In this document: positions 17,731 to 26,216 of the stretch, one piece after another
Position numbering within the stretch: the first letter of the stretch is position 1
Layout of the letters: each line of letters starts with the position of its first letter
Assembly (NCBI GenBank): GCA_963662755.1
Contig: OY759725.1
Location: 941,781 to 1,005,780 of the forward strand
From: an uncultured Sulfurimonas sp.
Lineage (GTDB): Bacteria > Campylobacterota > Campylobacteria > Campylobacterales > Sulfurimonadaceae
Length of the DNA: 64,000 nucleotides
Reading direction: 5' to 3'
Program-made: the position numbers and the translations under genes
Notes under the pieces: generated by a model
What the model was told of the DNA's origin: nothing
What the model saw: only the letters and a program-made list of their open reading frames with translations
The model's database searches: none

Positions 17731-18200
17731 CAGGAAGTGTGTTCGTCAATAGCTTTGTTCCACATAAGCTTATATTTTCTACGCATAAATTCAACTTCTT
17801 GTTGAGAAAGTTTTAATTGCTCTTGAAGTGTGTGAATAGTTTTTCTATCTTCATCATAAAGCTCTTGAAGAGAGGCTAAAGCTTCTCTTAAAAATTCATT
17901 TTCATTTTTTACAGAGACGATTGTTTCATCTTTGGCATCTAGAACTTTTTCATGAAGATTGATGATAGTACCTATTGTTTTTTCAACAAATTCAGGTTGT
18001 ACCAACATCTCTTTTGTATTACGAAGTGAGAGCTCTTTTAATTGAGCAGGAACTACTTGGTCTGAGCCTTTAGATGGGTCAATCATTCTAACACCATTTT
18101 CTACTTTTACAGTTAGTTTTTCACGTTCGCATAAATCATCAATCGCGTTAATATCTAAACCTGTAAGTTCCATATACTCATCATCACTCATCCACGTCAT
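17730..18200 (-). CDS. DUF3972 domain protein
   Basis: TIINLHEKVLDAKDETI..KNENEFLREAL..QELYDEDRKTI coiled-coil motif; position between purE and glyQ; ATG at 18200 has the better SD spacing. Confidence 0.75.
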   Translation of the reverse strand: MTWMSDDEYMELTGLDINAIDDLCEREKLTVKVENGVRMIDPSKGSDQVVPAQLKELSLRNTKEMLVQPEFVEKTIGTIINLHEKVLDAKDETIVSVKNENEFLREALASLQELYDEDRKTIHTLQEQLKLSQQEVEFMRRKYKLMWNKAIDEHTS

Positions 18201-18206
18201 AGCCAT

Positions 18207-18316
18207 TCCTTAATTTATTTCATAAATTTAAGGGAACCTTTGCATTTTGTATATTACGATAAAGAAACGACTCCCTTTATCTACGCTAACGCTTGGTTTC
18301 CCTCGGCGGGAAGCCC
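18207..18316 (-). repeat. Dispersed structured element, copy A (MITE-like or RNA motif)
   Basis: Aligns with 25328-25440; includes 31 identical nt (aaggttcccttaaatttatgaaataaattaa). Confidence 0.75.
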
Positions 18317-18346
18317 ACGGTATTAATACCGTCTAAAATTTAAAAT

Positions 18347-25307: not shown

Positions 25308-25327
25308 TACGCAAAAAAACTTTTTCT

Positions 25328-25440
25328 TGGGCTTCTTGCCGAAGGAATCCAAGAGATAGCGTAGGCAAAGGAATTACTTCCTTTACCGTGATAGATGAAT
25401 GGGATAAGGTTCCCTTAAATTTATGAAATAAATTAAAGGA
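25328..25440 (+). repeat. Dispersed structured element, copy B
   Basis: Homologous to 18207-18316 (reverse strand); ends in the dapB SD. Confidence 0.75.
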
Positions 25441-25448
25441 AAAATAAT

Positions 25449-26216
25449 ATGGTAAGAGTTGGTGTTTTTGGTGCAAATGGTAGAGTTGGAAAACTTATTA
25501 TTGATGATTTAAAAGAGAGTGAAAATATAAGTTTAAGTTCTGTATATGTTAGAAATGAGCTTAACTTTTCGATAGACCCTTCTGTTTTAGTGAGTACAGA
25601 TATTAAGTCATTTTTAAATGCTTGTGATATTGTTATAGATTTTTCACTTCCTGAAGCTTGTGAAGCACTCTTAGAAGCAGCTATTAAAACTCCAAAGCCT
25701 CTTGTTATTGGTACAACTGGTTTAAATACACATCAATTAAATCTTTTAAAACAAGCTAGTGAACTTATGCCTGTACTATACGCTACAAATATGTCTTTGG
25801 GTGTAGCTCTTTTAAACAAACTCGTATATCAAGCAGCATCTGCACTCGATGGTTTTGATATAGAAATAGTTGAAATGCATCACAAGCATAAAAAAGATGC
25901 ACCAAGTGGTACAGCACTTACTTTAGGAGAATCTGCAGCACGTGGTCGTGGACTTGAGTTAGATAAAGTAAGAGTAAGTGGTAGAGATGGTAATATTGGC
26001 GAGAGAAGTGATGATGAAATTGCCGTAATGGCTCTTCGTGGCGGAGATATTGTCGGTCGTCATACTGTAGGCTTTTACAATGATGGAGAGTTTATAGAAC
26101 TAAACCACACAGCTACTTCTAGAAATACATTTTCTAAAGGTGCTATAAGAGCTGGAGCATGGTTAGCGGACAAAGAGGCTGGTTTATATTCTATAAGTGA
26201 TTGTTTAGAGTTATAA
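25449..26216 (+). CDS. dapB: 4-hydroxy-tetrahydrodipicolinate reductase
   Basis: [34 protein letters not shown]. Confidence 0.97.

Follow-up and report, generated by a model that had tools for sequence, protein, structure and literature searches.

A dispersed structured element that places its own ribosome-binding site before Sulfurimonas genes

Two copies of a non-coding element, ~135 nt long and made of five hairpins, each place an SD before a gene in a stretch of 64,000 nucleotides from an uncultured Sulfurimonas sp. (the window). Both belong to a family that is spread across the genus and whose complete members lie in sense orientation, abut a start codon, and are gained and lost between related genomes. 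We favor, with a probability of about 0.6, the reading that these are mobile structured leaders, which donate and gate a ribosome-binding site, spread, are lost again, and act in cis as RNA. The preliminary description of this DNA had left a choice between a MITE-like repeat and a cis-regulatory RNA; the data refute neither and support a combination of the two, although not a MITE in the strict sense.

Family size, anatomy, and the two copies in the window

The element had been taken for a two-copy one, which falls far short of its actual number. In its own genome (2.39 Mb, 32% GC, one contig), the BLAST check proposed earlier uncovered many further copies, with 36 matches, and iterated nhmmer searches resolved ~15 complete and ~10 partial copies (~25 together), which are 70–82% identical to one another. 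A covariance model (R1) built from 11 own-genome copies gave matches in 93 of the 101 genomes of the genus, with 1–33 copies each and ~680 in all. In a sample of the order, R1 also detected the 5′ core in 36 of 151 genomes, representing 18 of 69 genera; beyond the family, H0, H1, the mini-hairpin, H2, and the letters joining them (the 5′ part, described below) are kept and the last hairpin is different. The loci taken from relatives were the best-scoring matches, and the relatives returned by a dapB search were all Sulfurimonas. The element matches no Rfam family: a search of Rfam 15 gave zero matches in the whole window at gathering thresholds and only chance-level ones (E-value of at least 0.6) around the two copies at permissive thresholds. 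No published description of it was found in full-text literature searches, one survey of REPs giving no more than palindrome counts for S. gotlandica. We regard this abundant, strongly covarying, and unannotated family as a candidate new RNA family of Sulfurimonas and related Campylobacterales, which are key sulfur-oxidizing bacteria of vents, sediments, and groundwater.

From its 5′ end, the element consists of AAA, a variable palindrome (H0), and GGGC; then of H1, a 5-bp stem with the loop GCYGA, followed by AAC; and of the mini-hairpin GC-GUUA-GC, the loop of which accommodates an extra 25-nt hairpin in some copies. GUAG then leads into H2, a 10-bp stem whose loop is usually UUAC; almost every copy has GCGUAG immediately before this stem. 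The parts of this 5′ domain are joined by conserved single-stranded letters (GGGC, AAC, AGYGUUARCGUAG, and CGU). After H2, an A/U-rich linker ends in (A)UGAAGG or AAAGG, and the last hairpin, H3 (CCUUCAUUUUAU-GAA-AUAAAAUUAAGG, or a CCCUUAAAUUUAU variant), holds the SD, with the start codon 4–12 nt past it. Two further features were considered and rejected: an outer stem closing H1 (CUUGG with CCAAG), which fits copy B and one other copy and fails by hand in most, and a leader peptide, as short ORFs exist (e.g., AUG-AAG-GGU-UUC-CUU-CAU-UUU-AUG-AAA-UAA) whose frame and AUGs are not conserved.

Copy A is a complete element at 18202–18336 on the minus strand (R1 match G000:C1:959982-960116, 129.5 bits), with purE and a DUF3972 gene as neighbors (Pfam), and copy B a complete one at 25309–25444 on the plus strand (G000:C1:967089-967224, 119.9 bits), with a trxB-like gene and dapB (Pfam). 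The two regions align with ~80% identity and have an identical tract of 31 nt in common. Most of the structure read earlier from these copies is indeed there. The loop GCCGA of stem 1, with its differing closing pairs, belongs to GGC plus H1, at 18298–18315 (minus; UUCCC, GCCGA, GGGAA) and 25330–25347 (plus; UUCUU, GCCGA, AGGAA). The 10-bp stem 2 with a 4-nt loop is found in both copies as GUAG plus H2, at 18258–18284 (minus; loop GUCG) and 25361–25387 (plus; GGCAAAGGAA-UUAC-UUCCUUUACC), and the mini-hairpin GC-GUUA-GC of copy A lies at 18285–18292 (minus). The SD-containing terminal hairpin formed by the 31-nt tract is H3, at 18208–18233 in copy A (minus; CCUUAAAUUUAU-GAA-AUAAAUUAAGG, with the anti-SD paired to the SD, −5.2 kcal/mol) and 25413–25439 in copy B (plus; CCUUAAAUUUAU-GAA-AUAAAUUAAAGG). 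The SD is AAGGA in both, at 18207–18211 (minus) and at 25436–25440 (plus), the latter before the dapB start at 25449. The 16-bp palindrome ACGGTATTAATACCGT reported beside copy A is present at 18317–18332, but it does more than abut the element: read on the minus strand (ACGGUAUUAAUACCGU), it is H0, the first module of the family, and nearly all copies have such an H0 with a covarying stem. In copy B, sequence and alignment show H0 to be degenerate (A-run, AAC, T-run; 25313–25325, plus).

The DUF3972 ORF is listed as starting at ATG 18206, directly adjoining the SD of copy A. Because its orthologs begin with MKWMSD and the SD spacing becomes 7 nt, the real start is probably the second ATG, at 18200–18198, which would make the ORF 6 nt shorter than called. 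Consensus scans of copies A and B found neither a promoter nor a terminator inside them, and a −10-like box suspected in the H2–H3 linker was unsupported by the scan. The single-sequence fold of copy A is only modestly better than those of its shuffled versions (z = −1.96), and a fold of similar quality is obtained for the opposite strand.

Covariation and the two folds of the 3′ domain

The compensatory changes noticed between the two copies are real and extend through the family. Across 48 copies, drawn from more than 30 genomes, 96.8% of the cells are paired, against 38–51% when partners are slid by 1–3 columns; 22 of the 33 base pairs change on both sides, and none of 500 shuffles attains the observed values. 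Among the 11 own-genome copies alone, 14 of the 33 pairs change on both sides. Overall, 94–97% of cells are paired against 37–51% in the slid controls, a strong signal relative to slid and shuffled controls, which do not fully remove shared ancestry. In the 48 copies, two-sided changes affect all five pairs of the H0 stem, the pairs of H1 covary, and the mini-hairpin switches from C-G to U-A in 17 copies. In H2, 8 of the 10 pairs change on both sides, and the upper stem of H3 has undergone at least three independent compensatory events, seen in copies other than A.

A mutual-information scan also revealed a stem, S1, which is not nested in the hairpins and pairs the GGC before H1 with the first three letters of the H1 loop (GCC in copy A). 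It is paired in 98.5% of cells and all three of its pairs covary, the key pair being GC in 29 copies, AU in 14, and GU in 2, with no mismatch. As S1 and H1 overlap, S1 must be a very tight pseudoknot or else an alternative fold; strain would arise if both formed jointly, hence S1 may be the latter. Non-Watson–Crick cells comprise 50 G·U/U·G against 11 A·C/C·A, which places the constraint on the sense strand (RNA, or one strand of DNA). Finally, plainly orthologous copies, such as three ppiC copies with a rare GUGAAAC loop region in common, or copy A and its counterparts L115 and L163, differ from each other by compensatory changes in H0 and H2, indicating that the fold was maintained after insertion.

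In most copies, the SD has a rival for the anti-SD in an upstream mimic hairpin, where (A)UGAAGG pairs with CCUUCAU. Separate folding gives mean energies of −7.8 kcal/mol for the mimic hairpin and −4.9 for H3, and −3.2 when the linker of the mimic region is shuffled. Copy B follows this pattern: its competitor hairpin region, GGGAUAAGGUUCCC (25402–25416, plus), has the SD mimic AAGG facing the anti-SD, and the linker plus the 5′ arm of H3 fold at −8.7 kcal/mol against −4.7 for H3. Copy A is an exception, with a competitor at −1.4 kcal/mol and the sequestering hairpin at −5.2. One copy carries a C to U change in the anti-SD together with a G to A change in the mimic. The competitor energies and the paired changes lend support to both 3′ folds. 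The SD is thus predicted to be open by default in most copies, copy A being unusual in favoring sequestration. The occlusion of the SD proposed earlier therefore holds in so far as the hairpin exists and is favored in copy A, but not as the general mode, given the stabler competitor in most copies.

If the family acts as we propose, its 3′ domain would have three working parts, namely, the mimic ((A)UGAAGG or AAAGG), the anti-SD (CCUUCAUUUU or CCCUUAAAUUU), and the real SD (AAAAUUAAGGA), which would form two mutually exclusive hairpins whose balance sets how open the ribosome-binding site is. The 5′ domain (H0, H1 with its overlapping 3-bp stem, the mini-hairpin, and H2) would serve as a conserved folded platform, most likely protecting message ends or binding a shared factor; the functionally mixed set of downstream genes argues against a specific ligand.

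Position, gain, and loss

The orientation of complete copies relative to genes, which the preliminary description had proposed to check, is not random. All 15 complete own-genome copies are in sense orientation, between codirectional genes and 6–11 nt before a start codon, and in all 47 complete copies analyzed from more than 30 genomes, the start codon follows AGG by 4–12 nt and opens an ORF of at least 92 aa. Six partial own-genome copies that lack H3 are antisense and lie just after genes. Orientation tracks the gene and not the replication arm, the neighbors A and B being on opposite strands. The downstream genes recur (luxS, nifU, ilvC, parvulin, dapB, nusB, rplL, rplS, ridA, as well as hypA/B, clpX, thiG, hemE, ribH, and flagellar genes), yet are functionally unrelated. 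No sequence conservation extends upstream of AAA and H0. A −10 box lies 15–25 nt upstream of many copies, so that the element makes up essentially the whole leader there. We infer that an inserted element is transcribed with its gene, as the whole 5′ UTR or as a spacer within an operon, and acts in cis as RNA.

Comparison with relatives disclosed clear empty sites, again a check suggested at the outset. The element was found at only 3 of 80 Sulfurimonas dapB loci, the remainder having a spacer of 10–40 nt, and at 3 of 30 loci upstream of the DUF3972 gene, where the closest relative (94% identical protein) is empty. In a comparison of twelve own-genome loci with their counterparts in the three nearest genomes, the copies at nusB, thiG, luxS, nifU, ridA, clpX, rplL, and two others proved to be absent from the two closest genomes, with clean junctions; presence and absence differ between genomes whose flanks are 85–90% identical. 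In the native state of nusB, the ribH stop overlaps the nusB start (TAATG), therefore the whole of H3 and the SD arrived there with the element. At clpX, ridA, and the gene for a 112-aa membrane protein, the native SD lies at the left junction and the AAGG of the element serves at the right one; these native SDs are partly inside H0, where they pair with CCUU of the element. The element would thus spread to new sites, landing at or beside the SD of a gene, and would often be lost again.

The clearest case is the membrane-protein gene (own 814755–815093; L230–L259), on which the element has landed repeatedly. Much of the genus has a product 93–99% identical to this one, and the gene is preceded by a conserved extended −10 box, TGTATAAT, with a leader of ~30 nt. 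In 25 of 30 species, TGTATAAT is followed by a short leader and CUAAGGUG, and in the other five there are elements with different H3 subtypes and junctions, indicating independent insertions. One relative without an element there keeps only AAUAAAAUUAAGGAUAUG of the element, where 20-odd other species have CUAAGGUG; judged from these sequences, AAUAAAAUUAAGGAUAUG looks like the footprint of a deleted copy. We rejected a native origin of the 3′ arm of H3 as a general rule, as no such native sequence exists at nusB, pgpA, thiG, copy A, or clpX, and because the outgroups indicate that the motif of this relative is probably a footprint. In the own genome, AUAAA(A)UUAAGG precedes a start at ~45 further places, several of them obviously truncated elements, and the bare initiation regions of this kind may be footprints of earlier copies. 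Truncated elements or bare motifs were seen upstream of genes lacking a full element at own 2123945, 924579, 833750, 1781578, and 1019799, and at ~39581 of the window. Upstream of dapB in Sulfurimonas sp. CS5 (L039), a decayed copy consists of an H1-like piece and GUGAUAAUGUAG fused to the SD. At another locus (L083), two elements are in tandem, the second within the H3 loop of the first.

Competing explanations and relation to known systems

The own genome encodes two RAYTs (REP-associated tyrosine transposases; NF047646, 95 and 73 bits), both outside the window. One (own 610459–610992, minus; L032) is flanked by the palindromes CTAGTTCCACC..GGTGGAAC (also given as GTTCCACC..GGTGGAAC), and the other (own 1945170–1945733, plus; L031) by GGATGTACGACTTCAGTCGTACC and GGTGAGGCTAAAGCCACAC (also given as GTACGACTTCAGTCGTAC), so that the genome has at least three further families of hairpin repeats. 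We rejected RAYT as the mobilizer because these other palindromes flank its genes and it does not co-occur with the element in the 101 genomes of the genus: RAYT is present in 48 and the element in 93, and there are complete genomes with copies and no RAYT as well as with RAYT and no copies. An origin akin to TnpB/omega RNA was discarded too, TnpB being absent from the own genome. No gene was seen there between element ends, and a search of the Y1 and TnpB transposase families revealed no partner of the element.

Judged by their defining features, the element does not qualify as a REP-RAYT repeat, a MITE, or a riboswitch. Its H2 palindrome has a GTAG-type head, as in REPs, but its modules occur in a single orientation and fixed order instead of inverted pairs, and near-identical copies are absent (70–82%). 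It varies in presence at orthologous sites as MITEs do, but strict MITE membership is not supported, as inspection of the 48-copy alignment revealed no terminal inverted repeats, AAA plus H0 and the 3′ end AAAAUUAAGGA not being reverse complements; H0 and H3 are subterminal hairpins. Its fold is conserved as in riboswitches, but its downstream gene set is functionally incoherent. As for the junctions, AAGG-like sequences occur at both sides at clpX, the membrane-protein gene, ridA, and thiG, with TAA at nusB, and the common left flank UAAAAUU in relatives does not follow this arrangement. The left junction follows a native AAGG, GAGG, or GCGG at five to six loci, a rule not evident in most copies of relatives. 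A 7-nt target duplication of UAAAAUU was rejected because the 5′ flank is invariant with respect to the H3 subtype.

A purely selfish repeat of the REP/BIME, PATE, or MITE kind, with a transposase reading its hairpins on single-stranded DNA and with survivorship explaining both SD and orientation, would account for the high turnover and empty sites, the repeated insertion at one gene, the antisense partial copies at gene 3′ ends, and the resemblance of GUAG before H2 to a REP head. It would also suit a genome with two RAYT genes and several other palindrome families, and the combination of hairpins near both ends with AAGG at both junctions of some loci recalls IS200/IS605-derived elements. 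We nevertheless consider it unlikely, given that other palindromes flank the RAYT genes, whose distribution over 101 genomes does not match that of the element, and that TnpB is absent. Copies within a genome are merely 70–80% alike with freely covarying stems, unlike recent bursts; the strong excess of G·U over A·C, the preservation of folds by compensatory change after insertion in orthologous copies, and an orientation that tracks the gene instead of the replication arm are at odds with it.

Other points would suit a fixed, non-mobile cis-regulatory RNA, that is, the leader of a regulon. Its conserved loops and small pseudoknot would bind a protein, small RNA, or metabolite common to the regulon, and H3 with its competitor would form the expression platform: conserved unpaired letters stand beside freely covarying stems and the covarying S1, the SD, anti-SD, and mimic are laid out accordingly, and the 5′ core is conserved across the order; having no Rfam match, such an RNA would be new. 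That reading is decidedly improbable, as the downstream genes have no common pathway, presence varies between genomes with 85–90% identical flanks, one gene was hit independently by different subtypes, antisense and truncated copies exist, and another genus has the core in 3′ regions and in the space separating convergent genes. An RNA thermometer, in which an A/U-rich H3 melts with temperature to free the SD and the rest of the element is incidental, is suggested by the CCUU–AAGG pairing of H3, whose A/U-rich stem is weak (typically −4.7 kcal/mol) and resembles fourU-type thermometers. It is very improbable, though, because in most copies the competitor is already stabler at 37 °C and would leave the SD open regardless, the conserved 5′ domain is left unexplained, and the gene set has no heat- or cold-shock flavor. 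A bolder version, which we hold to be quite unlikely, is that of a riboregulator homing to the AAGG of an SD through its own CCUU anti-SD motifs, burying the old SD in its first hairpin and installing a gated one in its last. If it were true, dozens of unrelated housekeeping genes would be joined in one post-transcriptional circuit and, the SD of a decaying element staying in place, many “native” AAUAAAAUUAAGGA initiation regions would be footprints of the element.

Mobile structured leaders, the reading that we prefer, have partial counterparts among known repeats. REP/BIME of Escherichia coli and other Proteobacteria are also dispersed extragenic hairpin repeats, transcribed within operons as composite modular units, with GUAG before the palindrome (H2 here) and a likely effect on the stability of mRNA segments and the expression of neighboring cistrons. 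Unlike them, the element has five hairpins in fixed order and one orientation rather than inverted pairs, a low copy number, freely covarying stems, and no RAYT link, and it always abuts a start codon and carries an SD. Correia (NEMIS; Neisseria) and ERIC/IRU (Enterobacteria, Yersinia) are, like the element, non-autonomous, 100–160 bp long, adjoining genes, and variable in presence between strains; they are co-transcribed, fold in mRNA, and alter expression in an orientation-dependent manner, to which the element may be likened. They have long terminal inverted repeats and one long hairpin, with a TA duplication for Correia, whereas the element lacks terminal inverted repeats, is built of several short hairpins whose loops are conserved, and brings its own SD. 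BOX of Streptococcus pneumoniae (boxA-boxB-boxC) is likewise modular, structured, and dispersed near genes, and can modulate downstream ones, but its sequence is unrelated, the number of its modules varies, and it does not systematically supply a ribosome-binding site. With the IS200/IS605-derived PATEs, the element shares hairpins near both ends, the absence of terminal inverted repeats, and an apparent insertion right behind a short motif (AAGG at several left junctions) that resembles the sequence with which the element ends; it differs in having no TnpA/TnpB linkage that we could find, in an orientation that follows genes and not the replication fork, and in a target rule that applies at some loci only. 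The platforms of riboswitches and thermometers (SD, anti-SD, and anti-anti-SD) show the same three-part 3′ logic with near-equal competing hairpins, but the element has neither a coherent regulon nor a known ligand, matches nothing in Rfam, and is multi-copy and mobile.

The element seems to rewrite translation-initiation regions systematically, for which few cases are documented among dispersed elements; in doing so, the SD of a gene would be swapped for that of the element, an anti-SD and a mimic added, and the SD of the element left behind on deletion. It makes testable the share of mobile DNA in shaping ribosome-binding sites and expression inside operons, and the element itself is a leader module that is compact and portable by nature. 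A model of it would help annotation pipelines, for example, in the choice of start codons, as for the DUF3972 gene.

In one own-genome copy (L012; 117516–117633), a variant 5′ half, CUUUAGUCGCCUCAGCGGCGCAAGCGAAG, replaces H0 and H1 before an H2-like hairpin. The variant also occurs at own 1243104–1243150 and 851221–851280, both alone and, near 1,243,000, nested with ordinary copies, and may represent a second, recombining family of modules. In two genomes of another genus of the order (G184 and G123; L211–L223), an extra conserved hairpin, UCUUGCAAAA-nnnn-UUUUGCAAGA, precedes a related core, which is followed by UAGAGUUCU-GUA-AGAACUCUA. This core is often located just after a co-oriented gene and sometimes between convergent genes; supplying an SD is therefore not general to the superfamily.
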